This document shows, piece by piece, positions 6,951-60,868 of a stretch of DNA of 64,000 bases. Made by a program: the position numbers and the translations under genes. The notes below the pieces were generated by a model. It worked only from the letters and a program-made list of their open reading frames with translations. It ran no database searches and had not been told where the DNA came from. Each line of letters begins with the position of its first letter. The stretch's first letter is position 1. The stretch spans positions 200 to 64,199 of the forward strand of contig CAZBPK010000146.1 of NCBI GenBank assembly GCA_964493765.1, read 5' to 3'. The DNA is from an uncultured Bacteroidia bacterium (GTDB lineage Bacteria > Bacteroidota > Bacteroidia > J057 > CALLMJ01).

Positions 6951-7514
6951 TTATTGAGGAAGCTTTGCTGCAATTTTTATGTCAGGAAATAAATCTTCAA
7001 TAAGAGGATTTTTTAAGCCGTTAGAATCAAAGTAATAAAATTTTTTACCTTGGTTTTCACTTAAAATTAAAAGATAAGCACTAGAATTTACGGGTGTTCC
7101 TTCAAAATTCATGGTTAATTTAAATGGTACAATTCCATAAATGATGTTATTGTAAATGGTAAAGTCTTTAGGGTCTTCAATGGTTACTTTATCGATGGTA
7201 AAATTACCCATAGCCTGCATTTCTAGTTGAGTATTTTCAATTAAAGTTTCTTTACCACCAGCCATGTCAATAATTTTGGGGTGCATTAAATCTTTTTTAA
7301 CGGCAATGCTAAAATCATTATTTAACCACCCTTTTTCAAGGGTTTTTAAATCATTTGAGATGATTTTAAGCATTTCAGGAGTGGGTTGAAAAGGTTTGGA
7401 TTTAAGTTTTTGTGCGTTGAGGTTAAGAATAAAAAATGAAAATATGAAAAATGGAATAAATTTGTAAAAGCGTGAGGGATGTGTAGGGCACGAAGTGGCA
7501 CTGCCTTTTTCCAC
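6951..7514 (-). CDS. small secreted protein of unknown function (start uncertain)
   Basis: A signal-peptide-like FYKFIPFFIFSFFILNLNAQ is followed by a ~150 aa mature part. No ATG, TTG or GTG lies between repeat copy A and the signal peptide. The nearest in-frame start is the GTG at 7514, inside the repeat. The listed ATG at 7643 would add about 55 aa translated from the repeat. Confidence 0.5.
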   Translation of the reverse strand: MEKGSATSCPTHPSRFYKFIPFFIFSFFILNLNAQKLKSKPFQPTPEMLKIISNDLKTLEKGWLNNDFSIAVKKDLMHPKIIDMAGGKETLIENTQLEMQAMGNFTIDKVTIEDPKDFTIYNNIIYGIVPFKLTMNFEGTPVNSSAYLLILSENQGKKFYYFDSNGLKNPLIEDLFPDIKIAAKLPQ

Positions 7515-7600
7515 TTTTAAAAAAAGTGGAAAAAGGATTGCCGAAGCGAAAGCGAAGCCCGAAGCAGCCCGACTCTGAGTGTTAGCGAAGAGGCACGCCC
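7470..7600 (+). repeat. GC-rich dispersed repeat, full copy A
   Basis: GCGTGAGGGATGTGTAGGGCACGAAGTGGCACTGCC, then a 15-bp perfect hairpin, then GGATTGCCGAAGCGAAAGCGAAGCCCGAAGCAGCCCGAC...GGCACGCCC. It aligns with copies at 13169, 19284, 44429 and 60733. Confidence 0.9.
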
Positions 7601-7617
7601 TAAAAAATAAAACAAAA

Positions 7618-9090
7618 TTAAATTTTTTGTCTATGACCATCATACACTCTGAAACAATTTAAACTTTGAGAAAAAAATTCTGGTTTCATAATAGATTTAC
7701 CCAGAAACATTCTTGCACATTCTTGAATACCTTCGATAATGGAGGGATGGGGGTGTATAAGCTCTGCAATGGCTTCAATGCTTAAATTTTGGGCAATCAA
7801 TAAAGCAACTCCTTGAATGGCAGTACTTGCATGCTCACCGATTGCTCGCATTCCTAATATTTTACGATGTTCATCATCAGATACTAAAATTTTAAAAAAG
7901 CCTCTAGGACACTGCATACACAAAGCTCTGCCAATATAATCATAAGTATAAGTAGCAACTTGGTATGGAATGCCTTTTTTCTGAGCTTCTAATTCGTTCA
8001 TACCCACACCCGCAACCTCAGGGTGTAAAAACATAATAGTGGATATATTTTCGTAAATCAAAGGTTGGTCTTTGCCATAAATTTTTTCTATAACATGCCT
8101 ACCTTCTAATTCCCCTACATTCACTAAACAAATATCAGCGGTTGTATCACCTACAAAATAAATATTTGGAATTTCTGATTGTCCATCTTTTGTATCAATA
8201 TAGCCCTTAGAATTAAAAGTTAGACCAGCGTTTTGTAAACCAAGCCCTTCAAAATTAGGAACTCTACCTACGGAAATTAAAGCTTTTTCTGCATAAAATG
8301 TTTGAGTTTTACCGTCTTTAAAATCTAAAATATATTTAACTTTTTCGTCTTCAATTTCCATGGAAATTAAAGAAGCGTTTTTATGAATATGCACACCTAG
8401 ATGTTCTAAATTTTGTGCAACCATAGTAGCAATATCTTCATCTTCAAAGGGTAAAATTCTATCGGTTTTATCAATTAGATAAACTTTAGTTTTACCAAAA
8501 TTAGCGAAAATAGTAGCAAATTCACAACCAATTACACCAGCTCCAAGAATTACTAAACTTTCTGGATAATCTTTTAAATTGTGAATACCATCGGAAGTCA
8601 TAATAATTTTTTCATCAATAGGAATGGTGGGTAATTTTCTGGGTCTTGAACCCGTAGCAATGATTATATGGTCAGCCCAAACTAATTCATTTGAGCCATC
8701 AGAATAAGAAATTTCAATTTGATTTTTATTGAGCAATGAGCCAGAACCATGAGCAAATTGAAAAAATTTGGAATGTAAGGTTTGAATTTGATTCAATTGA
8801 AATTGAAGTTGTTGTGTACGAGTTTGAACTGCATGATTCATGAGTTCAGAAATTTTAGAATAAGGAGGCAATGGGTAATTTTCAGAGGCTAACTCTGAAT
8901 GTTTCATATTGTAAACATTCTTGGAAAGTTCCCAAAGGGTTTTAGAAGACAAAGCACCATTGTGTAACCCAGCACCCCCAATTTTATCCCTTTCAATAAG
9001 TATAACTTTTTTTCCAAGGTCTAAAGCTCTCATAGTAGCTGCATATCCCGAAGGACCTCCACCAATCACAGCAATGTCGTATTTTTCCAT
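7618..9090 (-). CDS. FAD/NAD(P)-dependent pyridine nucleotide-disulfide oxidoreductase family protein (Lpd/SthA-like) without the redox-active cysteine pair
   Basis: DIAVIGGGPSGYAAT FAD fold, a second GAGVIGCEFA dinucleotide fold, and the C-terminal HPHPSIIEG interface motif. The CxxxxC position reads GGAGLHNGALSSK. Confidence 0.75.
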   Translation of the reverse strand: MEKYDIAVIGGGPSGYAATMRALDLGKKVILIERDKIGGAGLHNGALSSKTLWELSKNVYNMKHSELASENYPLPPYSKISELMNHAVQTRTQQLQFQLNQIQTLHSKFFQFAHGSGSLLNKNQIEISYSDGSNELVWADHIIIATGSRPRKLPTIPIDEKIIMTSDGIHNLKDYPESLVILGAGVIGCEFATIFANFGKTKVYLIDKTDRILPFEDEDIATMVAQNLEHLGVHIHKNASLISMEIEDEKVKYILDFKDGKTQTFYAEKALISVGRVPNFEGLGLQNAGLTFNSKGYIDTKDGQSEIPNIYFVGDTTADICLVNVGELEGRHVIEKIYGKDQPLIYENISTIMFLHPEVAGVGMNELEAQKKGIPYQVATYTYDYIGRALCMQCPRGFFKILVSDDEHRKILGMRAIGEHASTAIQGVALLIAQNLSIEAIAELIHPHPSIIEGIQECARMFLGKSIMKPEFFSQSLNCFRVYDGHRQKI

Positions 9091-9269
9091 ACCTCTAAAT
9101 CAAATAACAAAATTAAATATTTTTTGAAATGGAAAAAAGATTTGCGAAAAATTAGTATCCGTTTCCCTTATAATTTGTTTTTTTGTTATAGAGATTAGTC
9201 TGTTGAATTGATAGCCAGAGGCAAACGAATTTTGTTCTTAATAAATTCTTTTTTTATAAATTAAATTTC

Positions 9270-9277
9270 TATATTTG
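9270..9277 (+). promoter_or_regulatory. Bacteroidota-type -7 box (TATATTTG)
   Basis: Matches TAnnTTTG and lies 23 nt upstream of the ATG at 9300. Confidence 0.5.
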
Positions 9278-9299
9278 AGTTACCAATATAAATCATTTT

Positions 9300-10043
9300 A
9301 TGCAAAAAGTTATTGAAAAAAATTGGAATGATTATCAAAAGAAAGGAGATAAACCTCTTGTGGTAGTTTTAACAGGCGCAGGGATTTCTCAAGAAAGTGG
9401 AATTAGTACATTTAGAGATGCGAATGGCTTATGGGAAAATCACAGAATTGAAGATGTTGCCAGCCCAGAAGGTTTTGCTAAAAATCCTGAATTAGTTTTG
9501 CATTTTTATAATTTAAGACGAGCTCAAGCACAAGAAGTTAAGCCCAATGATGCTCATTTTGCTTTAAAGGATTTAGAAAAAGATTTTGAAGTTGTAATTA
9601 TTACTCAAAATGTGGATAATCTACATGAAAGAGCTGGTTCAACCAATGTTTTACATTTACATGGTGAATTATCAAAAGTAAGAAGCACAGCTTATCCAGA
9701 ATTAATATATGAAATCGGCGGATTACCCATAAAATTAGGAGATTTGTGTGAAAAAGGCTCCCAATTAAGACCTCATATTGTTTGGTTTGGTGAAGGTGTA
9801 CCTAATATTTATCCTGCTGCTGAAATTACTAAACAAGCAGACTTTTTTATGATTATTGGTACATCTTTGGTTGTTTATCCTGCTGCAGGATTGATTGATG
9901 AAATTCCTTTTAATTCCCCTATATTTGTAATTGACCCTAATATCCCTATTCATTTTCATGATTTTAAAAATTTATATATTTTCCCTGAAAAAGCTACAAC
10001 CGGAGTAATCAAAGCTATTGAAAAATTGAAATCCATAATTTGA
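9300..10043 (+). CDS. cobB: Sir2-family NAD-dependent protein deacylase
   Basis: GAGISQESGISTFRD, QNVDNLHERAG, LHLHGEL and HIVWFGE motifs. Confidence 0.88.
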   Translation: MQKVIEKNWNDYQKKGDKPLVVVLTGAGISQESGISTFRDANGLWENHRIEDVASPEGFAKNPELVLHFYNLRRAQAQEVKPNDAHFALKDLEKDFEVVIITQNVDNLHERAGSTNVLHLHGELSKVRSTAYPELIYEIGGLPIKLGDLCEKGSQLRPHIVWFGEGVPNIYPAAEITKQADFFMIIGTSLVVYPAAGLIDEIPFNSPIFVIDPNIPIHFHDFKNLYIFPEKATTGVIKAIEKLKSII

Positions 10044-10111
10044 TTTTTAGAAATTGTTCACATTTTTTTGTAAATAATTGAAATAATTGTTCCATATATT
10101 CATAAAAAAAA

Positions 10112-10119
10112 TATTTTTG
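10112..10119 (+). promoter_or_regulatory. Bacteroidota-type -7 box (TATTTTTG)
   Basis: Matches TAnnTTTG and lies 18 nt upstream of the ATG at 10137. Confidence 0.5.
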
Positions 10120-10136
10120 CTACAAATTTACTTTAT

Positions 10137-13100
10137 ATGGATTTTTTCAAATATTTTGCGCTTTCATTGACAATCCTTGTTTTTTGGTTTAACTCATCTG
10201 TTCTTTCTCAACCCGATATAAGAAAGAAAGGTACTAAAGAAGAAAAAAAAAATAATACCAATAATGAACAACAGCCCATTAAAACCGATAAAGGTTTTTA
10301 TCAAATTTCTGGAAAAGTTGTAGATGAAAACAAAGAACCTATGTCTGGAGTTTATGTTTTAATTGAAGGTACTTTAAACGGAACTATAACAAACAATGAA
10401 GGCTTTTTTACCATAAATTTAACGGAAAATAAACCTATAAAAATACGATTATCATATATTGGTTATGCTACTCAGTTTGTAGAGGTGAATCCAGAAATCA
10501 ACAAAGAGATTTCTGTTAATATGAAAGAAGAATTTTTGCAAGCCAATGAAGTCGTAATTAGTGCTTCTAGAATCCAAGAAAGGATTATTGAATCACCGGT
10601 AAGTATAGAAAAAATGGATTTAGTTACCATCAAAGAATCTCCATCAATTAGTGTTTATGAAGGTATAACAATGTTAAAAGGGATAGATCAATTAGGAGGT
10701 TCAATGCTTTTTAAAACCATAAATACAAGAGGTTTTAACTCTGCTACTAATCCTAGATTTGTGCAGATGTTAGATGGAATGGATATGCAAGCACCAGGAT
10801 TAAACTTTGGTATAGGTGTTTTAAATGGTGCATCTGATTTAGATGTAGAAAGTGTTGAATTGATTCCTGGAGTTGCTTCGGCTTTATATGGACCGAATGC
10901 TTTCTCGGGTCTTATGAATGTAAGAACTAAGAATCCATGGCAATATCAAGGGGCATCAGCATCTTTAAAGTTGGGTGCTAATCATATTGATAAATATGAC
11001 CCTCAGACAAGCCCTTTTGTTGATTTTAATGCTCGTTATGCGAAAGCATATAATGAAAAATTTGCATTTAAGATAAATTTGGGCTATTTAAAAGCCAATG
11101 ATTGGCAAGCAACAGATTACAGAGACATTGCTAATTATGCAGGTACAATTAATAATACATTAAGCGATAAACCCGGCTTTGATGGTCTAAATATGTATGG
11201 TGATGAAGTTTCTGCCATTTTTGATGCCACATCATCAGGCGGGTTAGTTACACAGCCTATTCGTATTGCAAGAACAGGTTATAGAGAAGTTGATTTGGTG
11301 GATTACAATACTTATAACTTAAAAGCAGATGTAAGTTTACATTACAAAATTAAACCCAATTTGGAATTCATTGGAATGGGCAGATGGAATAACGGAACTA
11401 CCGCTTACCAAGCCGTAAATAAGATTTCTATTAATCAGTTTTTTTATCATCTATACAAATTAGAGCTTAAAGCAGATAATTTTTATGTTAGGGGTGTGGT
11501 ATCTATGGAAGATGCTAATAAAACTTATGATTCAAGATTTGCCGCAATCAATTTGAACAGAATGGCTAAGCCTGATGAACAATGGTTTACACAATACTTG
11601 TTAGCATACGGTAATAATAATTTTTTAATTAACGCAATAAGGGGTTTTGCGGGTTTAGATCCCATTCAAGCAGGAAGTGACGCAGCAGCTAGGGCTTTTG
11701 CTGATGGAGACAACACAAACGTAATTCGTATTTTGCAAGAAAATCAAGACCCGTTTTATTTGGCTAACAAGCCATTTGTTGATTATGTTTTTGGTGGAAG
11801 AGGAAGATTTCAACCCGGAACTCCTGAATTTCAAAATGCTTTTAAAAGTATAACCTCAAAACCCGGCTTTTTAGATGGTGGCGCTTTGTTTGTAGATAAA
11901 ACTGCTATGTATTCTACCGACGGTCAATATGATTTTAAAAATTTGATTTCTTTTTTGCATTTAACTGCTGGTGGCAATATTAGAATATTTGATTTGAACT
12001 CTCAAGGTACTTTATTTTCTGATACGGTAGGAAATCCAATAAGAGTGTGGGAAGTAGGGGCTTATTTTCAAGCTACAAAAAGTTTAGTAAATGATAGATT
12101 AAAAATTATTGCTTCTGCAAGAGCAGATAAATCCAAAAATTTCCAAGTGGTTTTTAGTCCTAGATTAGCTACGGTTTACTCATTTGGAGAAAATAAAAAT
12201 CATAATATTCGTGTAAGTGCTCAAACGGGCTTCAGAAACCCCACTTTGCAATCTCAGTACATTGATTTGAATTTAGGCTTTTCTAAATATATTGGTGGTG
12301 TAAAAGACGCTTTTAGTCCGTATGGTGTAGAAAATAATTATTCTCAAGAATCAGTGAATCAATTTTTAACAGAATATCAAAGGCTTTTATCGCAAGGTAT
12401 GGATACCACAAGTGCTATAAACCAAGCTACACCTCTACTCAAAAAATTAGAAATGAAGAATGTTAGACCAGAACTCATCAAAACTTTTGAGTTTGGTTAC
12501 AAAGGTTTAATTCAACAAAAACTTTATATTGACGCTTATGCATATTACAGTTTATATGATTATTTTGAAGGTGCTGTGAATATTGTTGCTCCTGCAAGAA
12601 AATGGAATGAACAAACTAAAAGTTGGGAATATTCAGAGCTAAATCCCCAAGTAATTGCTAATAATTCTGCACCAAAAGCATATTATAGAAGATATTATAA
12701 CGCCTCTGAACAAGTAAGTGCGTGGGGAGCTTCTATTGGAGCAAGTTACAACTTAAACAACAAATGGTCTTTTAATGGTTCTTATACATATACAGATGCA
12801 TTATTTGATGAAAATGATGATAATCAATTAATAGCAAAATTTAATACACCACCCCATAAAGTTACAGCAGGTGTTGCAGGAAGGAATTTATTCCAAAACT
12901 GGGGTTTTTCTATTCAATACCGTTGGCAAGATGCTTTTGAATTAGAAGAAAGCTATGCACAAGGAATCGTTCCTGCTTTTCATAATTTAGATGCTCAAGT
13001 TTCTTATAAAATACCCTCAATGAAAACCACTTTAAGAATCGGTGCTACCAATGCTCTCAATTTGAGACGTGTGGAAATGTTAGGTGGTGGAACGATTGGG

Positions 13101-13145
13101 GTTTTACCGTATTTTCAAATCACTTATGACGAATTATTTAGGTAA
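10137..13145 (+). CDS. TonB-dependent outer-membrane receptor with an N-terminal carboxypeptidase-regulatory-like domain
   Basis: 1002 aa with a signal peptide. GKVVDENKEPMSGVYVLIEGT...YIGY is CarbopepD_reg-like. The plug region contains VELIPGVASALYGPNAFSGLMNV. A long beta-barrel-like C-terminus follows. Confidence 0.85.
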   Translation: MDFFKYFALSLTILVFWFNSSVLSQPDIRKKGTKEEKKNNTNNEQQPIKTDKGFYQISGKVVDENKEPMSGVYVLIEGTLNGTITNNEGFFTINLTENKPIKIRLSYIGYATQFVEVNPEINKEISVNMKEEFLQANEVVISASRIQERIIESPVSIEKMDLVTIKESPSISVYEGITMLKGIDQLGGSMLFKTINTRGFNSATNPRFVQMLDGMDMQAPGLNFGIGVLNGASDLDVESVELIPGVASALYGPNAFSGLMNVRTKNPWQYQGASASLKLGANHIDKYDPQTSPFVDFNARYAKAYNEKFAFKINLGYLKANDWQATDYRDIANYAGTINNTLSDKPGFDGLNMYGDEVSAIFDATSSGGLVTQPIRIARTGYREVDLVDYNTYNLKADVSLHYKIKPNLEFIGMGRWNNGTTAYQAVNKISINQFFYHLYKLELKADNFYVRGVVSMEDANKTYDSRFAAINLNRMAKPDEQWFTQYLLAYGNNNFLINAIRGFAGLDPIQAGSDAAARAFADGDNTNVIRILQENQDPFYLANKPFVDYVFGGRGRFQPGTPEFQNAFKSITSKPGFLDGGALFVDKTAMYSTDGQYDFKNLISFLHLTAGGNIRIFDLNSQGTLFSDTVGNPIRVWEVGAYFQATKSLVNDRLKIIASARADKSKNFQVVFSPRLATVYSFGENKNHNIRVSAQTGFRNPTLQSQYIDLNLGFSKYIGGVKDAFSPYGVENNYSQESVNQFLTEYQRLLSQGMDTTSAINQATPLLKKLEMKNVRPELIKTFEFGYKGLIQQKLYIDAYAYYSLYDYFEGAVNIVAPARKWNEQTKSWEYSELNPQVIANNSAPKAYYRRYYNASEQVSAWGASIGASYNLNNKWSFNGSYTYTDALFDENDDNQLIAKFNTPPHKVTAGVAGRNLFQNWGFSIQYRWQDAFELEESYAQGIVPAFHNLDAQVSYKIPSMKTTLRIGATNALNLRRVEMLGGGTIGVLPYFQITYDELFR

Positions 13146-13168
13146 AATCATCATTTCAAGAAGGATAA

Positions 13169-13300
13169 GCGTGAGGGAAGCGTAGGGCACGAAGTGGCAC
13201 TGCCTTTTGATGCTGAGTTTACCGAAGCAGAAAAAGGATTGCCGAAGCGAACAGCGAAGCCCGAAGCAGCCCGACCCGAACGAAGTGAGGGGCACGCCCA
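13169..13300 (+). repeat. GC-rich dispersed repeat, full copy B
   Basis: Both GC-rich arms match copies A and E. The central segment is different but still self-complementary (CCTTTTGATGCT...AGCAGAAAAAGG). Confidence 0.9.
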
Positions 13301-13352
13301 AATATTAACAAACCTAAAATCGCTATTTTTTTATCAATCCAAAAAATCTTAG

Positions 13353-13360
13353 TAATTTTG
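13353..13360 (+). promoter_or_regulatory. Bacteroidota-type -7 box (TAATTTTG)
   Basis: Lies 15 nt upstream of the guaB ATG at 13375. Confidence 0.5.
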
Positions 13361-13374
13361 CAGAAAATATTTTT

Positions 13375-14844: not shown

Positions 14845-14858
14845 AACTGCCCTTTCGC

Positions 14859-17806: not shown

Positions 17807-19273
17807 ATGAAAAAACTTTTATTACTGATCGTCCCTATTTTTCTAATTCTTATTTATTATTTTCCTATTGAATTACAATCTCAACAAAAACAAAAATTAG
17901 ACCTACAAACTGCATTAGAGAATTTTAAAAAAGACCCTTCCATGCAAAATGCTTCTTGGGGTTTTTATGCTTATAATATCAACCAACAAAAAGTTGAAGC
18001 TAATTTTCAAGAAAATTTAAGTTTAATTCCAGCTTCAAGTTTTAAAACTTTAGCTTGTGGCAGTGCTTTATTAAAATTAGGACCAGATTACCAATATAAA
18101 ACCATTTTAGGATACAAGGGAACCATTGATAAAGGAATTTTAAAAGGGAATTTAATCATCAAAGGTAGTGGTGACCCCACATTAGGAACTGATAGAGTCA
18201 ATGGAGGTTTAAATATTGATGCTTTTTTAAAAAAATGGGCTTCAGCAGTGAAAACTAAAGGAATTACAAAAATTGAAGGAGACTTATTGGTTGATGTTTC
18301 TTGCGTAACACCAGATGCCATTGCCCCCAATTGGTTATGGTCAGATATAGGAAATTATTATGGATCAGGTTTTTATGGAGTAAATATTCGTGAAAATCAT
18401 TATGGCATCATTTTTAAATCAGGCTTTAAAGAAGGTGATTCTACTACTATTCGCTATACATTCCCAAGATTTCCTGATTTAGTGATAGAAAACGCCGTAA
18501 AAACTGGAAAAGCCGGTTCTACCGATGATGCTTATATTTACGGAAGTCCTGAAAGCAATTTTAGAAGAGTGGTTGGAACGATTCCCCCTAACCAAGAATA
18601 TTTTGAAGTAAAAGGAGCTTTACCCAATCCGCCTTATCAAGCTGGCAGATTCTTAAAAGACATGCTAAACGGTTTAGGGGTAATCTTCACAGGAAAAATT
18701 ATTGTAACCTATCAAAATCAAATTTTAACCGAAATCATTGATACCCACAGCTCCCCCAAACTTTTAAGTATTGTTTATACCGCTTTAGGACTCAGTCATA
18801 ATTTAATGACAGAAGCCATATTCCAAACTGCTTTTAAAAAATCTAATGAACCCATGAGTTTATTTTCCGCTATTGAGGGCTTGAAAAAAACTTTAGATAG
18901 TGCCAAAGTAGATACCAAAGGTTTATTTATTTCCGATGGAAGTGGATTATCCAGAACTAACCTTATAACAGCCAAACAAATGGTAGAAATTTTAAAATAT
19001 TATGACCAATCCAAAATCGGTAAGGATTTTGAAAAGTGTTTACCCGTAGTAGGCGAAAGCAATAATTTTATCATTTTAAATCAGCTAATTGAAAACAAAG
19101 GAAAAATTAAAATGAAAAGTGGTTATAAGTCTCGAGTAAGAAGTTTTGGTGGTTACGCTTATAATAAAAATAACGAAAAAATTGCATTTGCTTTTATCGT
19201 AAATTACTACACCTGTAGCAACATAGAGTCCTTATATAAAATGGCACCTGTTATAAATGCAATAGCAAATTAA
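17807..19273 (+). CDS. dacB: D-alanyl-D-alanine carboxypeptidase/endopeptidase, PBP4 (S13) family
   Basis: Signal peptide, PASSFKTL (SxxK), GSGDPTLG, DGSGLSRTN (SxN) and KSGY (KTG-like). Confidence 0.85.
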   Translation: MKKLLLLIVPIFLILIYYFPIELQSQQKQKLDLQTALENFKKDPSMQNASWGFYAYNINQQKVEANFQENLSLIPASSFKTLACGSALLKLGPDYQYKTILGYKGTIDKGILKGNLIIKGSGDPTLGTDRVNGGLNIDAFLKKWASAVKTKGITKIEGDLLVDVSCVTPDAIAPNWLWSDIGNYYGSGFYGVNIRENHYGIIFKSGFKEGDSTTIRYTFPRFPDLVIENAVKTGKAGSTDDAYIYGSPESNFRRVVGTIPPNQEYFEVKGALPNPPYQAGRFLKDMLNGLGVIFTGKIIVTYQNQILTEIIDTHSSPKLLSIVYTALGLSHNLMTEAIFQTAFKKSNEPMSLFSAIEGLKKTLDSAKVDTKGLFISDGSGLSRTNLITAKQMVEILKYYDQSKIGKDFEKCLPVVGESNNFIILNQLIENKGKIKMKSGYKSRVRSFGGYAYNKNNEKIAFAFIVNYYTCSNIESLYKMAPVINAIAN

Positions 19274-19283: not shown

Positions 19284-19418
19284 TGGGCGTGCCCCTTGCT
19301 TCGTTTCACTTCGCTGCGGGTCGGGCTGCTTCGGGCTTTGCTATCGCTTCGGCAATCCTTTTTCCACTTTTTTCAAAAGTGTCAAAAGGCAGTGCTAAAC
19401 CCTTTGCATCCCTCACGC
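19284..19418 (-). repeat. GC-rich dispersed repeat, full copy C (inverted orientation)
   Basis: TGGGCGTGCCCCTTGCTTCG...GGCAATCCTTTTTCCAC...GGCAGTGC...CATCCCTCACGC is the reverse complement of the A/B/E consensus. It lies between convergent genes. Confidence 0.9.
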
Positions 19419-42740: not shown

Positions 42741-42828
42741 TTGTTGAAATTTTAATATAAGGTTTACAGCAAAATTTGTGCCTACTTATAAATTCAATAA
42801 AAATTTATATTTGCAAACTCATAATCGT

Positions 42829-44394
42829 ATGAATATCAAAAAGCGAGAAAACTTACTGTTTTTTCTCATCATTTTTCTTTTAAGTATTCTCATTTACAAT
42901 GGAACTAGACACTTTGTAACTTTACCTTACGGAATCCACCAATGGAGGCAAAGTATGAACTATTCAATAGTTCAAAATTTTCAAGAGTCTAATACCCATT
43001 TTGGGAAACCCGCTATGGACAATTTGCTGAACCCAGACAATACAGGTTATTTAGTATTAGAATTTCCCATTTTTCAATGGATAATTTCTTTCTTCCCTAG
43101 AGAATTTTTTCCTTATTTTAGATGGTTAATTTATTTAAGCTCCTTATCGGGTCTTTATTTTGCTTTTCTTTGGAGTTATCAAGTATTAAAAAATTATTAT
43201 CTTGCTTTTGCTTCCATTTTAATTTTATTTTTTGTCCCTTTGTTTTTATTTTACAATGCCAATTATTTTGTGGATTTACCTGCTATTCTTTGGAGCATAA
43301 GCACAGCTTACTTCTGGAATAAAGGAATTACCGAAAATTATACCCCAAAATCCATATTGCTAGGCACTTTTTTTTACACTTTAACAGGTTTGTTGAGACC
43401 CGTTGGTTTAGCTTTGCCTTTTGCTTTTATGATTTATTATTTTTTGAATCATTTTAAAAAAAGCAAATTTCTTTTCTGGAACTTTTTGATTAGTACTACT
43501 TTAATTAGCATTTGGTACATTTATCAACAAAAAACGAATATTACTTATGAAGTTCATACTCCCCCTCAAACTTCTATTTTTTACAGTTCAAAAGAGGAAA
43601 TCAAAAACGTTCTTTATGCTTTTAGAGATTTTCATTTTAATCAATTTGGTTTTGTATTTGGAAATATTTTGGGTTATATTCTTTGTTTTTTAATGATTGG
43701 TTTTCATTGGAAAAACTATGATAAAAATCTAAAAACTATATTTATATGGACATTTTTGGGTACAATTGCTTATTTAACTTTATGGTTTAAAGTTTTTCAA
43801 GACCATGATTATTATTTGATCCCTTGTTTATCTTTTTTCTTTATTACTACTCTCATGACCTTAATGGCCTTAAATCATTATATCCCTTTAAAATCTTTAT
43901 ACGTTACTCTCTCAATCATTCTTTTCTTTAGCTTTTATCATGGTTATGAAAATTATAGATTAAGGGACTTTAGAGGTTGGTATGGCTTCAGTTTAAATAC
44001 TTCCAAATTTGAGGAAGGGATGTTATGGTGGGTTCATCATGAAGATCAAATGATATGGTCAAAAATTAGAGAATTGTCCAATAACATGGATAAACTTGAA
44101 AAAGCAGGTATTCAAAAAAAAGATACCGTAATTTGTAATTTTGACCCAACTCCCACTTACGTTTTGAGTTTATTACAATTAAAAGGTTGGGCTTTATCCA
44201 ATGAAGGTGGGAAGATGAATCGTTTTGAGCAATATCAATATTACATCAATCGTGGTGCAAAATATCTCATTCATTATGGTGATAGAGTAGCAGTGGAGGA
44301 TGAATCTGAAAAAGATAATTTACTAAAGCAAAATTTAATTTTTCAATACGATAGTATCAAATTTTATAAAATTGACCATTTAAAAAATCAGTAA
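42829..44394 (+). CDS. polytopic membrane protein, GT-C (ArnT/PMT-like) glycosyltransferase-like
   Basis: About 11 hydrophobic segments plus a soluble C-terminal domain. The start is set at the ATG at 42829 because TATATTTG (42806-42813) lies inside the listed GTG-start ORF. Confidence 0.5.
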   Translation: MNIKKRENLLFFLIIFLLSILIYNGTRHFVTLPYGIHQWRQSMNYSIVQNFQESNTHFGKPAMDNLLNPDNTGYLVLEFPIFQWIISFFPREFFPYFRWLIYLSSLSGLYFAFLWSYQVLKNYYLAFASILILFFVPLFLFYNANYFVDLPAILWSISTAYFWNKGITENYTPKSILLGTFFYTLTGLLRPVGLALPFAFMIYYFLNHFKKSKFLFWNFLISTTLISIWYIYQQKTNITYEVHTPPQTSIFYSSKEEIKNVLYAFRDFHFNQFGFVFGNILGYILCFLMIGFHWKNYDKNLKTIFIWTFLGTIAYLTLWFKVFQDHDYYLIPCLSFFFITTLMTLMALNHYIPLKSLYVTLSIILFFSFYHGYENYRLRDFRGWYGFSLNTSKFEEGMLWWVHHEDQMIWSKIRELSNNMDKLEKAGIQKKDTVICNFDPTPTYVLSLLQLKGWALSNEGGKMNRFEQYQYYINRGAKYLIHYGDRVAVEDESEKDNLLKQNLIFQYDSIKFYKIDHLKNQ

Positions 44395-44428: not shown

Positions 44429-44558
44429 TGGGCGTGCCCCTTGCTACGCTGCGGGTCGGGCTGCTTCGGGTTTCACTTTGTTTCAGCAATCCTTTTGACA
44501 CTTTTTATCAAAAGTGTCAAAAGGCAGTGCCACTTTGTGCCCTTCGCATCCCTCACGC
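44429..44558 (-). repeat. GC-rich dispersed repeat, full copy D (inverted orientation)
   Basis: TGGGCGTGCCCCTTGCTACGCTGCGGGTCGGGCTGCTTCGGG...CAATCC, then a perfect 15-bp hairpin (44491-44524), then CAGTGCCACTTTGTGCCCTTCGCATCCCTCACGC. Confidence 0.9.
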
Positions 44559-44632: not shown

Positions 44633-44960
44633 ATGATGAAACAACTTCCTATTGGTATCAATTCCTTTGAAAAAATCATTTCCGATATTGTATGCTTTTT
44701 TTAAGGGTCTGGGTTTGAACTGCATATTAGAAGATCATACCAATAAAGGTAGAATAGATTTAAGTATCCTATTGAAAGAAGCGATATACATATTTGAGTT
44801 CAAGGTGAGGAGAGTTGGAAATGAAGCCCCTTTAGAGCAGATTAAATCTAAGCGTTATTACGAAAAATATTTAAGTGAAGGTAAACCGATTTATTTAGTT
44901 GGAGTAATATTGGATGTGCAAAGTAAAAATATAACCACCATAGATTGGGAACTAATATAA
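44633..44960 (+). pseudogene. internally deleted, frameshifted remnant of an AAA-ATPase-like / PD-(D/E)XK (DUF1703-type) gene
   Basis: Frame a (44633-44704) gives MMKQLPIGINSFEKIISD..., the typical N-terminus of this family. Frame b (to 44960) gives ...NKGRIDLSILLKEAIYIFEFKV...LEQIKSKRYYEKY...IYLVGVI, the typical C-terminal nuclease core. The ~400 aa in between are missing. Confidence 0.6.
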
Positions 44961-48889: not shown

Positions 48890-48921
48890 GAGTTGCCAAA
48901 GGATAGCAAGGGGCATGCCTA
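48890..48921 (+). repeat. degenerate remnant of the GC-rich repeat (3' arm with an internal deletion)
   Basis: GAGTTGCCAAAGGATAGCAAGGGGCATGCCTA compares with GGATTGCCGAAGCGATAGCAA[...]GGGGCACGCCCA of copy C. Confidence 0.55.
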
Positions 48922-52578: not shown

Positions 52579-52819
52579 ATAGTGTTCGTTGCTACTGGAT
52601 AAAAATAAGTGAGTTAATTGTTGAACTTTATTTTTGTACTCTTCATCTTCTTGGCTGAAAAATTCTATTTGAAAATCTTCGTTTAGAATTTCATTAATTT
52701 GTGAAATTAATATTTAATAATCATCAGGTTTGCTAACTTTAATACAATAAAGAATAGTGAGATAAGTGGTAAAGAATTACACTCTAATTTCCTTTGACTA
52801 CTCATATTTTGCAACAAAT

Positions 52820-52852
52820 GCAGTGCCACTTGCTGCCCTTCGCATCTCTCAC
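52820..52852 (-). repeat. terminal fragment of the GC-rich repeat
   Basis: GCAGTGCCACTTGCTGCCCTTCGCATCTCTCAC compares with GGCAGTGCCACTTTGTGCCCTTCGCATCCCTCACGC of copy D. Only this arm is present. Confidence 0.65.
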
Positions 52853-52883: not shown

Positions 52884-52919
52884 AAAAAAAAATACCGAAA
52901 CAAATTTCGGTATTTTTTA
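52884..52919. terminator. bidirectional rho-independent terminator
   Basis: An A-run, then ATACCGAAA-caaa-TTTCGGTAT, then a T-run. It lies downstream of the minus-strand gene ending at 52944. Confidence 0.75.
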
Positions 52920-52943
52920 TTTAATGAATAGTATATTCACTCA

Positions 52944-53381
52944 TTATTGTGCTTCAGGCATATTCGCATTACGAATACGTTCACTCATGCTTTCAATTTT
53001 TTGAATGGTTTCTTGCATAAACATAATTGCGTCCATAATATCTTTTTTATCAGAATATGGAATAATGTTATACAAATTATCTTCTACTACCTTATTGAAT
53101 TCTTTTTCTTTCTTTTTATAATTAGCCATATTTTTATCATTAATGGAATGTGAAGGAATTCTTAAAGATTTTGTATCTTTAGGTTCAATCACACCAAAAG
53201 ACATGTAAGGACTAATTCTAACAAGACGGTTGTATTTATTCAAATAAACTTTGGTAAGTTGAAGTTTATCCATTTTTTCTAAATCCCCTAAAACATAGGT
53301 CATGTCTGCAGTTTGGTTTTGTGCAAACATATTAGAAACTAATGCAATGAAAACAAAAATGGTTAAAAAGTATTTTTTCAT
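52944..53381 (-). CDS. small secreted protein, paralog 1 of a tandem pair (unknown function)
   Basis: Signal peptide ...NMFAQ. It shares YVLGDLE, LTK(V/I)Y, LRIP, IPY(S/A)DKKDIMDAI(M/I)FMQE and IESM with the 53507-53956 product. Confidence 0.5.
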   Translation of the reverse strand: MKKYFLTIFVFIALVSNMFAQNQTADMTYVLGDLEKMDKLQLTKVYLNKYNRLVRISPYMSFGVIEPKDTKSLRIPSHSINDKNMANYKKKEKEFNKVVEDNLYNIIPYSDKKDIMDAIMFMQETIQKIESMSERIRNANMPEAQ

Positions 53382-53468: not shown

Positions 53469-53506
53469 CTCTACAATCAACTAATCTAAAAACAGCTAAA
53501 TGCAAA

Positions 53507-53956
53507 TTATTCCGTAGTATTTGCACCTTTTTTATATTGATTTTTAATTTTTTCACCCATAGACTCAATTTTATCAATCATTTCTTGCATGAAGATGATT
53601 GCATCCATGATGTCTTTTTTATCAGCATAAGGAATCAGATTACTTAAAGCAGCATCTGAATCTTGATTATAAGCTTCAATAGTTTTGCTATAACTATCCA
53701 TAGCTTTTTCATTAATACTTGTAGCAGGTATTCTTAATTCCGAGGGATTTTTCGGTTGTAATTCCCCAAATGGAATATAAGGTGTAATGCTAGAAAGTTT
53801 GTTTAATTTTGCAACATAAATTTTTGTTAAATCGATTTTGTCTAATACTTCTAAATCTCCTAAAACATAATTTACATTAGCAGCATTTTTCATATCTTGT
53901 GCATAAGAAGCTAGATTGAAAAATAGAAATACTAAAAGAAAAATGTACTTACTCAT
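53507..53956 (-). CDS. small secreted protein, paralog 2 of a tandem pair (unknown function)
   Basis: Signal peptide ...LASYAQ. About half its residues are identical to the neighbouring paralog by eye. Confidence 0.5.
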   Translation of the reverse strand: MSKYIFLLVFLFFNLASYAQDMKNAANVNYVLGDLEVLDKIDLTKIYVAKLNKLSSITPYIPFGELQPKNPSELRIPATSINEKAMDSYSKTIEAYNQDSDAALSNLIPYADKKDIMDAIIFMQEMIDKIESMGEKIKNQYKKGANTTE

Positions 53957-54116
53957 ATTTTTTTGTTCTATTTTTTTGTTTTTAGATTTACTGCAAAAAT
54001 ATAGAGTTTTTCATTCAGTCATACACATTCCACAAAAAATTAATTCACATTTTATATTTTTTTGTGGAAAACGGTATATCATTTGCTATATTTGCAATCA
54101 TAATCAATTTTGTATC

Positions 54117-54791: not shown

Positions 54792-54829
54792 AAAAATGTA
54801 ACGTATATTTGCATTTTTATAGATTTTTC

Positions 54830-56162: not shown

Positions 56163-56253
56163 ATAAAATTTTATCCTATTTTCCAAAATGAACCTTTATA
56201 ACAAAATACTTGTAAACAAATAAATAAAATTGTATTTTTGCGTTTTGAAAAAA

Positions 56254-56781: not shown

Positions 56782-56788
56782 AAATTCT

Positions 56789-57253
56789 ATGAACCATAAT
56801 GCACTTTATGAAAAAACCATTTCCTATTTAAAAGACCTTCATGCTCGCGAAAGCATGCGTTTGGGTTGGTATCGTCAATGGCAAAATCATGATAAAATCA
56901 AACAACTACGTGAAAGAAAATCTATACATACAGCTTTCTTGCATGATTTATTAAGAAAAAGGGGCTTAAAACCCGCTTGGTATTCTAGATGGTTTTACTT
57001 CATAGGACATGCTTTTGGTTTTTTTACAGCCTTATTACCCAATTCTTTAGCTTCCAAAATTGAAAATACTTTAGAAACTTGGATTTTAATTCGTTATGAA
57101 AAATATTTAGAACAACTAAAATTAGACCATAGCCTTCGTTCTATGATTGAAGCTATTCAATTAAAAAAACTCAATCACAATGAGCCTGCAATTGATGTTT
57201 TACAACTTCTTGAAATTTGCATTTCCAATGAAGAAAATTTATTAAAATCTTAA
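56789..57253 (+). CDS. hypothetical helical protein, probably co-transcribed with the GbsR-like regulator
   Basis: 154 aa, 7 nt after the upstream stop, with one hydrophobic segment. No diagnostic motif recognised. Confidence 0.35.
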   Translation: MNHNALYEKTISYLKDLHARESMRLGWYRQWQNHDKIKQLRERKSIHTAFLHDLLRKRGLKPAWYSRWFYFIGHAFGFFTALLPNSLASKIENTLETWILIRYEKYLEQLKLDHSLRSMIEAIQLKKLNHNEPAIDVLQLLEICISNEENLLKS

Positions 57254-57949
57254 ATGAACTTCAGTTTAGTGATTGATACTTCTACGTCAATTTGTGCAGT
57301 TGCGTTGTATCAAAATGAAATCTTATTATCAACGATTGCTTTGCATCAACCGAATTCACATTCTGAAAAAGCCGCTTTTTTAATTGATGAATTACTAAAA
57401 ATTACTAAAATACCTATTCAAGCATTAACCCATTTGGCTATAGCCAAAGGGCCAGGTTCTTATACTGGTTTAAGAATTGGTTTCTCCCTAATTAAAAGTA
57501 TAAGCTATGGGTTAAATTTACCCGTTATTGGATATTCTTCGTTACTGGGTCAATCTGCCGCTTTTTTTTCTTTAGCTCAACAACTCCAAAAACCCATAAT
57601 TTCTTGTTTAGATGCTGGAAGAAACGAAGTTTATACTTCTATTTATCATTATGATCTTCATTTACTTCATGATTTAGGTCCAACACTCTTACCTCATGAT
57701 GAATTAGAAAAGTTTTTGAATCATAATCAAGTGATTATCGTTGGGAATGGTGCATTAAAAATTAAAAATTATCATTCTAGTTCAACCAATAATGCGATTT
57801 TTATTTCTCATATAGAAAATCCGACAGTAGGTCTTGGAAATTATTTACAAACACAAATTCATCAAAATAATTATGAAAATTTGATTACTTTTGAACCAGA
57901 TTATCTAAAACCTGTAAATATTACTCAAAGCAAAGAGCCAAAAGTATGA
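57254..57949 (+). CDS. tsaB: tRNA threonylcarbamoyladenosine biosynthesis protein TsaB
   Basis: LVIDTSTSICAVAL and IAKGPGSYTGLRIG. About 230 aa. Confidence 0.82.
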   Translation: MNFSLVIDTSTSICAVALYQNEILLSTIALHQPNSHSEKAAFLIDELLKITKIPIQALTHLAIAKGPGSYTGLRIGFSLIKSISYGLNLPVIGYSSLLGQSAAFFSLAQQLQKPIISCLDAGRNEVYTSIYHYDLHLLHDLGPTLLPHDELEKFLNHNQVIIVGNGALKIKNYHSSSTNNAIFISHIENPTVGLGNYLQTQIHQNNYENLITFEPDYLKPVNITQSKEPKV

Positions 57950-58545
57950 AAATAGAGACCGCAAAATTTATATCTTCCAAAGTTCATTTAAAGGACTTGC
58001 CCAATACAAATTTGCCAGAATTTGCGTTTATTGGTCGTTCTAATGTTGGAAAGTCCTCCTTAATCAACTATCTTACTAATCAAGCTAAGTTAGCTAAGAC
58101 TTCATCAACTCCAGGAAAAACCCAAACTATTAATCATTATTTAATCAATCAGAATTTTTATTTTGTGGATTTGCCAGGCTATGGTTATGCTGAAGTTCCT
58201 TTATCCATAAAAAAACAATTTGAAAAAATGATTCAAGATTATTTACAGAAAAGGGATACTTTAGCTTGTTTATTTGTTTTAATTGATGTTCGCCATGATC
58301 CATTAAAAGTAGATTTAGAGTTTATTCAATGGGTAGGGGAAAATCAAATTCCTTTTTGTTTAATTTTTACCAAATGTGATAAACTTTCACAAAGCCAGTT
58401 AGATACTAAAATTCAAAATTATAAAAATAAGTTATTGGAGAGTTGGGAGGAATTGCCTCCTTATTTCTTAACATCTGCGGATAAAAAAATGGGTGCTAAT
58501 GAACTTTTGGCGTTTATGGATAAAGTAATTAAGGAAATTTTATAA
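57946..58545 (+). CDS. engB: ribosome biogenesis GTP-binding protein EngB/YsxC
   Basis: EFAFIGRSNVGKSSLIN (G1), PGKTQ (G2), DLPGYGYA (G3) and TKCDK (G4). Confidence 0.9.
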   Translation: MKIETAKFISSKVHLKDLPNTNLPEFAFIGRSNVGKSSLINYLTNQAKLAKTSSTPGKTQTINHYLINQNFYFVDLPGYGYAEVPLSIKKQFEKMIQDYLQKRDTLACLFVLIDVRHDPLKVDLEFIQWVGENQIPFCLIFTKCDKLSQSQLDTKIQNYKNKLLESWEELPPYFLTSADKKMGANELLAFMDKVIKEIL

Positions 58546-58596
58546 TTTAACTATTCAGAATTTACAAAGGCTTTTCATAAAGAAATAAATACTTTT

Positions 58597-59401
58597 TTAT
58601 TTTTTTATCCAAACGCTACTAGGTATAGCTTCTTCTTTCCAATTAGGAAAACCTATAAATGTTTCATAAAAACCGTCTTGAACTTCTTCAGGAATAAAAA
58701 CCAACTCTGTAATGGTTTTATCTAAAAAAGCGGAATTTTCTAAAGAATAATTTTTTAATTTCTGATTCCAAAAAATATGGTGATTACTCAAATAGCCTTC
58801 ATCAAAAGCTTTATCCAAAGAGGGAATATCTACAATTAAATGTTTAAATCCTAAGTCTGTAATTAAGGCAATAGCATCATTGGAAAAAAAAGGAGCAGGG
58901 TTTAAGTTATAATCATTCTTTTTTTTTTATCAAATCATTGGGTTTAGTTCTAATAATTAACCCTTCAACTTTTGAGTTCTCAGTTTGGTCAGAATAAAGA
59001 CTTAAAGCCTCTTCAATATCTTTTTTTATCAAAAGTTTGTCACCTTTTTCTAGTCTTGGCAGGTAATTTTCATTAACCCCAAAATCATCATTATTTTCAA
59101 GAGTATGAAAAGGAATAGTAATCAAAAGAGAGAAGAAAACAGGATTTACCAGAATATCTGGAAGAAAAATTTTATCATTAACTATGTGTCCAATACATTC
59201 AGTATGTGTACCGTTACAATGAGGAGTGATATGGAGCGTTTGGAAGTTACAAGAACCGCCGAGTTCTGTACTTCCAACCCATTCTCCTGACCTGTAAGGT
59301 TTTGAACTTGCCGTAGGCACATCATACATTCTTATTTGTTTCTCTGGGTTTTGTAAATCCAAATCTAAACTTATATTGATAAACATATATATATATTGCA
59401 A
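58597..59401 (-). pseudogene. cyclase/arylformamidase-family gene interrupted by a frameshift in an A10 tract
   Basis: The upstream ORF (59401-58913) has HITPHCNGTHTECIGH and ends ...LIKKKE*. The downstream frame opens inside the same homopolymer as KKKNDYNLNPAPFFSNDAIALITDLGFKHLIVDIPSLDKAFDEG... and runs to 58597. The frames differ by one base. Confidence 0.7.
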
Positions 59402-59573
59402 ATCTAATAACTTTTACATAACTTTTTGTACTTAAAAATACGTATTTTGTATATATTTTTTTAAAAACGCAACTTTTAATGGATTTCATTCGTTAAATTT
59501 GTAGTGTTTTTCATGGTTTAGTTTAGGTTAAATGCCTCTCATTTTGTACTTTTGTGCGAATGGGAGGTTTTTT

Positions 59574-60710
59574 ATGCTGAGGTTAATAATTATTTATTTA
59601 TTTTTATTTCAAATCGCTTTTTGTCAAAATTTTCAATGGGAAAATTATGTTCCTACTGATACGAGATTTTATCCTGTTGCAAGATTGAAAATTGTTATTC
59701 ATGTTTTACAAAAGAGTGATGGAACTAATAATTTTCAAAATAATGAAGAACATAAAGAAGCAATTTTAAAGATAGTTTTTCATGCTCATAGTCTTTTTGC
59801 AAACTTAAAACCCTTAAAAATTGGAAAAACAAATTATATTTCTGATTCAAGAATACGTTTAGATTTTGATAAAGAGGAAATTTATTTTCATCAAAATGAC
59901 CGTTATAATGATTTAAGTTGTATAGGGAAACAGGGAACTTGTGGAATGTTGATGCAAGAAATCTATAGAGAATTAGTTACTAAAAATTCCCAACAAAACC
60001 CTAATGCTTTACATGTTTTTTTCGGTGAGGAAGAGGAAGGCAAAGGCGAGGCTTGTGGCATAGGTTGTAAAAGATGGTGTTACATTGCAGGTGCCTATAA
60101 ACAGTATGTAAAAGCAAAAAATTTTTGGGATAGCGGAGCTTTGTTGGCTCATGAAATTGGACACAATTTGGGTTTGTATCATACTGTTTTTAAGAAAAGA
60201 CCTTCTAATGATTATTGTGATGATACTCCTACTTGGCCTGAAAATCCTGATTGTTGGAATGGAGACTCTTGCTCTAATAATATGATGGATTATAATGCGA
60301 ATAAAGATGGGCTTTCGCCTTGCCAATTAGGTAGAATTCATTTTTATATTTCTTCTAAAGGTCATGGTGATATTAAAGAAGCTATTTTAAAAGATTGGTG
60401 TATTTTCAATTCAGACTCTACTGTAATTCTTCAAAATTTTGAAAAAATTACATTAAATGGAGAATATCGTTTACAAGGGAATCTGGTTTTGTATCCCAAT
60501 TCAGAACTTACTATAAATGGAACTTTGCATTTGCCTCAAAATGCTTCAATTTATCTATATCCAAAATCTAAAATTATTATCAATGGAAGCATTACTAATT
60601 TTTGTGGTGATCAATGGCAAGGTATTTTTCCTTTGAAAAAGAAGAAACAAAAATTGGAAGAACAAGTGATTCTTAAAGGTAAATTAGAGAATTGTTTACA
60701 GAAATGGTAA
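59574..60710 (+). CDS. secreted zinc metalloprotease, M43 (pappalysin-like) family
   Basis: Signal peptide MLRLIIIYLFLFQIAFCQ. LAHEIGHNLGLYHT is the HExxHxxGxxH metzincin motif in the M43 style. NMMDY follows downstream as a Met-turn candidate. Confidence 0.7.
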   Translation: MLRLIIIYLFLFQIAFCQNFQWENYVPTDTRFYPVARLKIVIHVLQKSDGTNNFQNNEEHKEAILKIVFHAHSLFANLKPLKIGKTNYISDSRIRLDFDKEEIYFHQNDRYNDLSCIGKQGTCGMLMQEIYRELVTKNSQQNPNALHVFFGEEEEGKGEACGIGCKRWCYIAGAYKQYVKAKNFWDSGALLAHEIGHNLGLYHTVFKKRPSNDYCDDTPTWPENPDCWNGDSCSNNMMDYNANKDGLSPCQLGRIHFYISSKGHGDIKEAILKDWCIFNSDSTVILQNFEKITLNGEYRLQGNLVLYPNSELTINGTLHLPQNASIYLYPKSKIIINGSITNFCGDQWQGIFPLKKKKQKLEEQVILKGKLENCLQKW

Positions 60711-60732
60711 TGCAGTTTATTTGCATAGTTTA

Positions 60733-60868
60733 GCGTGAGGGATGCGAAGGGCACGAAGTGGCACTGCCTTTTAACGCTTTTGAAAAAAGTGGAAAAAGGA
60801 TTGCCGAAGCGAACAGCGAAGCCCGTAGCAAGCCCGACCCGAATGCGAAGCATGAGGGACACGCCCCA
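60733..60868 (+). repeat. GC-rich dispersed repeat, full copy E
   Basis: GCGTGAGGGATGCGAAGGGCACGAAGTGGCACTGCC...GGATTGCCGAAGCGAACAGCGAAGCCCGTAGCAAGCCCGACCCG...GAGGGACACGCCCCA. Confidence 0.9.

Follow-up and report, generated by a model that had tools for sequence, protein, structure and literature searches.

A family of folded, modular intergenic repeats in Bacteroidota that probably works like REP, BOX, or ERIC elements

We analyzed 64,000 nt of DNA from an uncultured Bacteroidia bacterium (GCA_964493765.1, contig CAZBPK010000146.1, positions 200 to 64,199 of the forward strand), referred to here as the window, whose positions serve as coordinates. The window carries five full copies and two remnants of a GC-rich element, and these belong to a family of folded, modular intergenic repeats that is spread across Bacteroidota and apparently undescribed so far. 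On balance, we favor reading the element as an interspersed DNA repeat, non-coding and non-autonomous, that works like repetitive extragenic palindromes and bacterial interspersed mosaic elements (REP/BIME), BOX elements, or enterobacterial repetitive intergenic consensus (ERIC) sequences. An initial annotation of this DNA had noticed the copies in the window; beyond it, the family reaches another class of Bacteroidota, and the two hairpins of the element are exchangeable modules.

The source is an AT-rich member of Bacteroidota, with type IX secretion sorting domains, a Bacteroidetes FtsL-like protein, and SusC-type receptors among the window proteins. Its nearest IMP dehydrogenases are those of uncultured "Bacteroidia" genomes. 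The five full copies (c1 to c5) were recovered by nhmmer and cmsearch at the positions and strands first given for them, and both remnants (r1 and r2) are real:

7470-7600, plus strand: c1, full length (cmsearch 146.9 bits, E = 2e-28)
13169-13300, plus strand: c2, full length (cmsearch 135.2 bits)
19284-19418, minus strand: c3, full length, its 5' arm shortened by a 5-nt deletion, between convergent genes
44429-44558, minus strand: c4, full length (arm pattern and cmsearch)
48890-48921, plus strand: r1, a 3' half that has lost internal sequence between AGCAA repeats and lies between divergent genes, so that no stop codon precedes it
52816-52852 (the extent found here), minus strand: r2, a 5' arm only, 89% identical to the c5 arm, between convergent genes (nhmmer E = 6e-6, cmsearch E = 0.55)
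60733-60868, plus strand: c5, full length (arm pattern and cmsearch)

A 22-nt pattern of the 5' arm, allowing up to three mismatches, matched four times in the window and never in 100 shuffles. The full copies scored E values of 1e-32 to 1e-38 with an nhmmer profile of the copies and 130 to 147 bits (E = 1e-25 to 1e-28) with a covariance model, and their pairwise identity is 79 to 87%. Their GC content of 53 to 60%, against a window average of about 30%, bears out the description of GC-rich copies in an AT-rich genome; they are the sole intergenic GC-rich islands of the window.

We call the purine-rich strand of the element (60 to 63% purine) its sense strand. This strand folds as a rod of five short helices, in which the 5' arm pairs with the 3' arm, plus two variable hairpins. 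The rod helices are P1 (GCGUG/CACGC), P2 (GGG/CCC), P3 (UGC/GCA), P4 (GGGC/GCCC), and P5 (GGCA/UGCC), with GAA/GAA internal loops between them. The central hairpin is closed by CCUUUU/AAAAGG, the second hairpin (P8) lies near the 3' end, and a CC tail is followed by A-rich sequence. The 5' start of the element is GCGTGAGGG, and the sense strand ends in ...CACGCCC AAA. In c2, the parts are placed as follows:

13169-13202, plus strand: 5' arm, with the 5' strands of P1 (GCGTG), P2 (GGG), P3, P4 (GGGC), and P5 (GGCA) and a local mini-hairpin, CAC-GAA-GTG
13203-13237, plus strand: central variable hairpin, closed by CCTTTT/AAAAGG
13238-13274, plus strand: 3' core, ATTGCC GAAGCGAACAGCGAA GCCC GAA GCA G CCC GA
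13275-13299, plus strand: variable 3' hairpin P8 (CCCG...GGGG), followed by CACGC, the 3' strand of P1, and by the CC tail

The 3' core carries the 3' strands of P5, P4, P3, and P2 together with a conserved GCGAAYAGCGA block that is common to the relatives in Saprospira described below. All copies share the same sense fold, with z-scores of -2.6 to -5.5 as RNA and -1.9 to -5.4 as DNA, and the complement strand is always less stable than the sense strand in both kinds of fold. Both variable hairpins change in sequence and length among copies and remain hairpins; the central one occurs in two types.

A BLASTN search of plasmids with c2 led to intergenic DNA of Saprospira plasmids (E = 2e-3). Each of three whole plasmids of 53 to 55 kb (L008/L027, L009/L028, and L010/L029) holds 22 to 23 elements of 111 to 141 nt built on the same plan, up to one per 2.4 kb. 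P1 appears there as GGCCU/AGGCC, GGCUG/CAGCC, and GGCUU/AAGCC, against GCGUG/CACGC in the window; P4 appears as GCAG/CUGC, AGGG/CCCU, and GGGG/CCCC, against GGGC/GCCC; and P2 likewise comes in several complementary versions. Common to the window and Saprospira are the junction blocks GCC-GA(A)G-CGAAYAGCG-A(A)G and CAGCCCGACCCG.

A covariance model, a check that the initial annotation had proposed, was built from window-type copies only; it recovers the Saprospira elements end to end, with the boundaries that had been drawn by eye, at E values down to 3e-5. In the two-lineage alignment, which was fitted to the covariance model itself, 95.3% of pair cells are standard pairs (79.5% in shuffles) and 18 of 28 pairs show changes on both sides, a count reached by 0 of 500 shuffles. 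When the partner was displaced by one to three columns, no measure held up (0.013 to 0.037, versus 0.313). An independent RNAalifold analysis of 33 Saprospira copies found double changes in 10 of 20 pairs, with G-U/G-T pairs conserved on the sense strand. A profile hidden Markov model of the Saprospira copies fails to find the window copies by sequence alone; thus, structure carries much of the signal. The link between Saprospira and the window is based on the BLASTN match and the covariance model.

We found further copies in an uncultured Bacteroidia metagenome-assembled genome (L002; at least one true copy among the matches listed from a gapped-pattern scan of a genome collection), on a metagenome contig (L004; one copy, from a metagenome pattern scan), and on a second metagenome contig, of 606 bp (L005), which has the same core with insertions at three hairpin positions. 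The genome-collection scan also gave one chance match, in a coding region of Christensenella. L005 was found by searching a protein database with concatenated antisense reading frames, where the only other match was the window's own open reading frame (ORF). The viral scan and the search of the phage collection yielded no copy. Rfam 15 had no match for the window at the gathering thresholds, giving only noise at E of 10 or below around c2, in line with the earlier failure to place the element in a named RNA family; on the Saprospira plasmid and related loci, it had nothing apart from a tRNA elsewhere. We found no description in the literature by sequence strings, Saprospira repeats, or Bacteroidetes miniature inverted-repeat transposable elements (MITEs).

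Two other repeats lie beside relatives of the element. On the Saprospira plasmids, an AT-rich palindromic repeat, AATAAAGATTCCGTTAAATAAAGAATTAAAGAAATAACGGAATCTTTATT, adjoins many of the GC-rich elements (e.g., L008 6150-6260 and 11560-11600; L009 2780-2840); it is a component of a composite unit or else a second family of repeats. On L005, three copies of a hairpin repeat, CCCCCTCTCTAAGTGAATTAGAGAGGGGGAACAAT, with spacers occupy positions 380-606, directly upstream of the element.

The element is marked by motifs that keep to one strand. CGAAG and CTTCG occur on the sense strand of the five window copies in a ratio of 22:0, and the 22 CGAAG fall within 660 nt, compared with 35 in the remaining 126,680 nt of both strands. 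In 48 Saprospira copies, the ratio is 58:1. The CGAAG direct repeats of the initial annotation are present, and by nature they are GAA mini-hairpin motifs confined to one strand; C-GAA-G makes up the hairpin tips and junctions. The sequences GCGAAGC, GCGAAAGC, and CCGAAGG form extraordinarily stable DNA mini-hairpins, which resist nucleases and bind single-stranded DNA-binding protein (SSB) poorly, and their RNA versions are much weaker (PMC13037366). Genuine RAYT-associated REPs (RAYT, REP-associated tyrosine transposase) carry such GCGAAGC-type tips too (PMC6006769, supplement). Because the motifs and the wobble pairs are strictly on one strand, the single-stranded form is what is shaped. 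We infer that a strand-bound structure, indifferent to the direction of transcription and tipped with C-GAA-G, fits single-stranded DNA better than mRNA.

The flanks of the copies share no promoter and no conserved U-tract on either strand, and the antisense strand precedes UUUU, as an intrinsic terminator would, only at c1 and c4. A promoter belonging to the element itself was considered and rejected: TTTG lies 5 to 6 nt upstream of c1, c3, and c4, where local hairpins partly explain it, but nine copies have no sequence in common in the 70 nt ahead of them. Likeness to hammerhead, twister, K-turn, and signal recognition particle RNAs was also dropped, as the defining cores are lacking and there is no Rfam score.

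Each full copy had been reported to follow a stop codon, at distances of 10, 17, 22, 23, or 34 nt. In the ORF table, these values hold exactly when measured between the nearest stop codon and one end of the copy. The c2 element starts 23 nt past the stop of a TonB-dependent receptor gene (10137-13145), in sense orientation, and ends 74 nt ahead of the IMP dehydrogenase start; c5, also in sense orientation, starts 22 nt past the stop of a metallopeptidase gene (59532-60710, with weak M43/reprolysin matches). The other three lie antisense to transcription, with their 3' ends 17 nt (c1), 10 nt (c3), and 34 nt (c4) from the stops of a minus-strand pyridine-nucleotide disulphide oxidoreductase gene (7618-9090), an S13 D-Ala-D-Ala carboxypeptidase gene (17807-19273), and a gene for a 538-aa protein (42778-44394), respectively. 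Gene names assigned earlier to the carboxypeptidase, oxidoreductase, metallopeptidase, and TonB receptor hold up, and "GT-C-like" does not, as the 538-aa protein has no Pfam match. The occurrence of both orientations in a 3-to-2 split also stands, as two sense and three antisense copies. With L002 and L004, both sense, the window lineage has four sense and three antisense copies relative to transcription.

In Saprospira gaps between co-directional genes, including successive gaps of the pur and paa operons, we counted by hand five sense and seven antisense copies. Copies sit 3 to 10 nt past stop codons inside operons and also occupy promoter-side gaps between divergent genes. With such promoter-side copies and no empty site found, the evidence does not establish that the element targets terminators, as had been suggested. 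The five window copies stand in unrelated housekeeping contexts, and the element is tied to no gene function.

The c1 copy may not be strictly intergenic. An annotated 229-aa protein (P0001, NCBI; ORF 6951-7643, minus strand) runs through it on the antisense strand, and the same long ORF is kept in a sister genome (L011; 97% identical to the source in IMP dehydrogenase and 86% in DNA across 13 kb), where the copy at this site shows indels of 18, 27, and 21 nt, each a multiple of three. In L011, this ORF has an ATG with a signal-peptide-like start just past the element; the ATG has no counterpart in the window. The c1 copy may thus be translated as an N-terminal extension of the ORF. A coding origin of the element was considered and rejected, since its sense frames hold stop codons and the richness of the antisense strand in pyrimidines is all that keeps the frames there open.

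Copies at orthologous sites turn over in place. Among the three Saprospira strains, every comparable site is occupied and the flanks are 95 to 100% identical, and the element itself often differs by subfamily, hairpin module, or inverted loop. At the sites of c1 to c3, L011 has copies marked by truncation, insertions, conversion, or decay toward AT, within flanks that are 92 to 100% identical; the copy at the c2 site resembles the c3 type of the window, and a further 21 kb of L011 has no copy. In L013 and L014, more distant relatives of the source organism, intact arms (L013 8294-8489; L014 5978-6303) enclose tandem hairpin modules of 45 nt (GCGAAACCACCCCGTCCTTCGGACACCCCTCCTATGTTAGGAGGG) and 31 nt (TATCCCTCCTAATAGGAGGGAAGGGAGGTTG), with one to three of the former and at least two to three of the latter; L014 runs off the contig end. 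An unrelated 45-nt module, ACAACAAGGC...GCAGTTCGACGACCAAAGGGAGTAAC, takes the place of the body of one Saprospira element and is nested once or twice in others. It looks like a separate tiny insertion module and is found at the following sites:

L008, 49690-49740: Saprospira 45-nt module
L008, 36269-36365: Saprospira 45-nt module
L010, 30574-30770: Saprospira 45-nt module

One pair of Saprospira orthologues (L008 16787-16902 and L009 29663-29779) differs by a loop inversion, GCCAGCAAAGCTGGC versus GCCAGCTTTGCTGGC (AAA versus TTT), which is a signature of template switching within a palindrome.

The copies also coincide with breaks in gene order. Synteny with L011 ends inside c3 (19328). At c5, synteny with relatives ends at the preceding stop codon (60697-60733), with a different downstream gene in each of three. 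Thus, two of the five copies are at rearrangement breakpoints. Logan short-read assemblies of the source organism (L003 1-30, which breaks inside c2) and of the sister species (L012 1-162) end inside copies, so the repeat breaks assemblies of these genomes. Together, these observations show a repeat family whose copies are exchanged or homogenized among themselves, degenerate where nothing maintains them, and mark points of rearrangement.

On each circular Saprospira plasmid, the orientation of the 22 to 23 copies alternates almost perfectly. On the WH plasmid, it reads +-+-+-+-+-+-+-+-+-+-+--; with 23 copies on a circle, the one pair of neighbors in the same orientation is the minimum possible, and the chance under random orientation is 46/2^23 = 5.5e-6. 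The three plasmids are orthologous and count as one observation for alternation. Tight head-to-head pairs stand 190 to 320 bp apart, and pairs flank single genes (purH, purD, and paaZ); some neighboring copies are tight pairs and perhaps single units. In the window, the order is + + - - + - +, without alternation or doublets.

Several known systems resemble the element. Like REP, BIME, and REPIN-RAYT repeats, it is a high-copy extragenic palindrome that sits just past stop codons and in operons in both orientations, and it forms a single-strand hairpin with mismatches and bulges, with tips of the GCGAAGC type that genuine REPs have. Its modules combine as mosaics as in BIMEs, neighbors on the Saprospira plasmids, though not in the window, tend to be inverted as in REPINs and BIMEs, and copies decay in a related genome, as upon loss of a RAYT. 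A second model is provided by the pneumococcal BOX element, with its modular boxA-boxB(n)-boxC build. Conserved paired end modules with a variable number of internal hairpin modules (L013, L014, and L005) recall this build, as do the intergenic position, the stable fold, and the absence of a transposase of its own. BOX belongs to a different phylum and has no known sequence relation to the element, so we draw an analogy and claim no homology.

ERIC sequences (intergenic repeat units, IRU) of enterobacteria and Correia elements of Neisseria are likewise imperfect palindromes of about 100 to 155 bp that lie in transcribed intergenic gaps, in both orientations, in copy numbers that vary greatly among related species. 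They have long terminal inverted repeats and a TA target duplication, whereas the element described here has 5-bp termini, no clear duplication, and GAA motifs on one strand. Rickettsia palindromic elements measure 100 to 150 bp, occur in a genome rich in AT, and can be embedded in frame within coding genes; similarly, the ORF that spans c1 is open in two species despite the three indels, but at most one copy here is possibly translated and there is no sequence relation. Integron attC sites (e.g., the Vibrio VCRs) are imperfect palindromes of 57 to 141 bp right after successive stop codons, recognized as a folded single strand, with structure conserved above sequence. Unlike them, the element has no RYYYAAC/GTTRRRY core sites, its termini are GCGTG...CACGC, its orientation is alternating or mixed, and its neighbors are operon genes rather than cassettes. 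Pfam scans of the window ORFs found no integrase nearby.

Of the roles raised at the outset, a REP-like selfish repeat is the best supported, a general terminator role finds no support, given the lack of a conserved U-tract, and a structured RNA is kept as a rival. In the favored reading of a non-autonomous DNA repeat, the relevant form would be single-stranded DNA exposed in replication, repair, or transposition, and probably not host mRNA. Copies would spread and stay alike through an enzyme that acts in trans on folded single strands; the leading candidate, put forward tentatively, is an HUH/Y1 transposase of the RAYT or IS200 type. Gene conversion between copies may also contribute. In a compact genome, copies would persist only where they do little harm, a few bases past a stop codon and in either orientation, and any effects on mRNA 3' ends, termination, or translation would be by-products.

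A number of observations weigh against this reading. The 54 window ORFs, compared with Pfam, contain no transposase, as had been stated before, and neither a transposase nor a RAYT was found in about 150 kb of related loci; the window has no RAYT either. We found no empty site and no presence/absence polymorphism, all comparable orthologous sites being occupied (c1 to c3 in L011, and the Saprospira plasmids), and no target-site duplication is readable in the AT-rich flanks; thus, the evidence stops short of transposition. Unlike a REP, which is a 20- to 40-nt hairpin, the element spans 115 to 140 nt with five long-range helices and has no GT[AG]G tag, the sole GTGG being internal to the 5' arm. 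One RAYT subclass (2.6) is specific to Bacteroidetes, and its repeats have been called "atypical" (PMC6006769). The listed ones are 24- to 35-nt hairpins such as GCTAGCGCGAGCGTCCCGCTCGTG, none of which is contained in the element; because these listed repeats do not match, we file the element as working like REP or BOX and not as a member. Part of the covariation could come from hairpin-templated mutation without selection, of which the loop inversion is one sign, and the pair counts across both lineages carry the circularity of their alignment noted above. Finally, junctions conserved across two classes and strict alternation in Saprospira suggest something more than junk.

This last point leads to a more novel possibility, which we consider rather unlikely and keep in view mainly because neither the favored reading nor its rivals predict the alternation: a strand-specific single-stranded DNA signal that works in inverted pairs and is conserved across Bacteroidota classes. 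It would fit because the junctions are conserved, the GAA mini-hairpins are confined to one strand, and the orientation alternates. Such a signal might be the repeat that pairs with a Bacteroidota HUH enzyme not yet linked to it, the two making up a REPIN-like system of long-term symbionts with a new and much more elaborate fold; alternatively, the host may have recruited it for priming, restart, or domain boundaries.

We weighed four rivals to a non-autonomous DNA repeat, which together hold a sizable minority of our expectation. The position of the copies makes a cis-acting mRNA element worth considering, in which the rod in the transcript of the upstream gene would terminate it or shield its 3' end, a role that enterobacterial REP and ERIC sequences play: all full window copies have an end 10 to 34 nt from a stop codon, Saprospira copies follow stops closely within operons, the fold is very stable, and c1 and c4, taken in antisense, resemble a large hairpin with UUUU directly after it. 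A function within an mRNA is hard to reconcile, however, with GAA motifs and G-U pairs that are strictly on one strand while the orientation to the upstream gene is mixed. There is also no conserved U-tract on either side, r1 and some Saprospira copies lie on the promoter side between divergent genes, others lie inside the co-transcribed pur and paa operons, where termination would harm, and the sister genome lets the same copies decay. We therefore regard an mRNA element as improbable. We give an equally small chance to a family of structured non-coding RNA genes that act in trans or as ribonucleoproteins, with the junctions as binding or catalytic sites and the hairpins as peripheral parts. 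The conserved core with peripheral hairpins of variable length, the strong covariation across two classes, the purine-rich GA junctions, and the greater stability of the sense strand would all suit such RNAs, as would our hand tally of four divergent gaps on the Saprospira plasmid, in each of which the copy is directed at the adjacent gene. Yet no conserved promoter or terminator accompanies the copies and Rfam has no match, the density reaches one per 2.4 kb, orthologous copies are quickly replaced or decay, there is no gene association, and C-GAA-G triloops are a motif of DNA stability, not of RNA.

The remaining two rivals keep the element as DNA, and we hold each to be highly improbable. 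A classical MITE would be a deletion derivative of an insertion sequence (IS) with a DDE transposase, with double-stranded terminal inverted repeats and an A/T-rich target. A size of 130 bp and inverted termini (GCGTG...CACGC) that co-vary between subfamilies fit this, two copies lie at synteny breakpoints, and the A-rich flanks on both sides (aaaa|...|aaat) leave room for a 2- to 5-bp duplication: TAAAA is conceivable at c1, with no more than AA shared at the other copies. At just 5 bp, however, the terminal inverted repeat falls short of the roughly 10 bp or more of MITEs, and the pairing spans the whole element with loops specific to one strand. No consistent target-site duplication, no parent IS in any locus, and no presence/absence polymorphism was found. 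A host-recruited single-strand DNA signal in inverted pairs, serving priming or replication restart or marking a boundary for a structuring or recombination protein, draws on the near-perfect alternation of 22 to 23 copies per Saprospira plasmid (P of about 5e-6), on strand-specific mini-hairpin motifs of a kind known at single-strand initiation sites and poorly bound by SSB, and on the junction core conserved across classes. Set against these are the window, which shows no alternation, the free decay of copies in the sister genome, the lack of a known partner protein, and the count of the three orthologous plasmids as one observation, with some neighbors as tight pairs that are perhaps single units.

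While Proteobacteria and Firmicutes have been the subject of much work on interspersed palindromic repeats, Bacteroidota have seen hardly any. The family described here is a new one of a known repeat kind that has some unusual traits, with a defined fold, a conserved junction core, and a sequence-structure model that finds it in two distant classes; it shows module swapping in place and a density of up to one copy per 2.4 kb. If a cognate enzyme exists, the two would form a new pair of folded single-strand DNA and protein. In practical terms, the element breaks short-read assemblies, marks synteny breakpoints, yields false ORFs and false N-terminal extensions in annotation, and would confound structured-RNA searches based on GC-rich intergenic regions.

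Three neighboring features of the window were recorded. The 5' end of c4 is 94 nt from an ORF (44652-44960, plus strand; 102 aa) with a near-complete PD-(D/E)XK domain (PDDEXK_9, E = 4e-17), which looks like a fragment of a larger gene. Beside r2, between convergent genes, a native AT-rich hairpin, aaaaaaaataccgaaacaaatttcggtatttttta, occupies 52888-52920 with A and T runs on its sides; it shows the form of an ordinary bidirectional terminator in this genome and is unlike the element. A 106-nt direct repeat of 75% identity (52980-53085 and 53552-53657) lies inside the neighboring ORFs 52944-53381 and 53507-53956, which have no Pfam match and are probably tandem paralogues.

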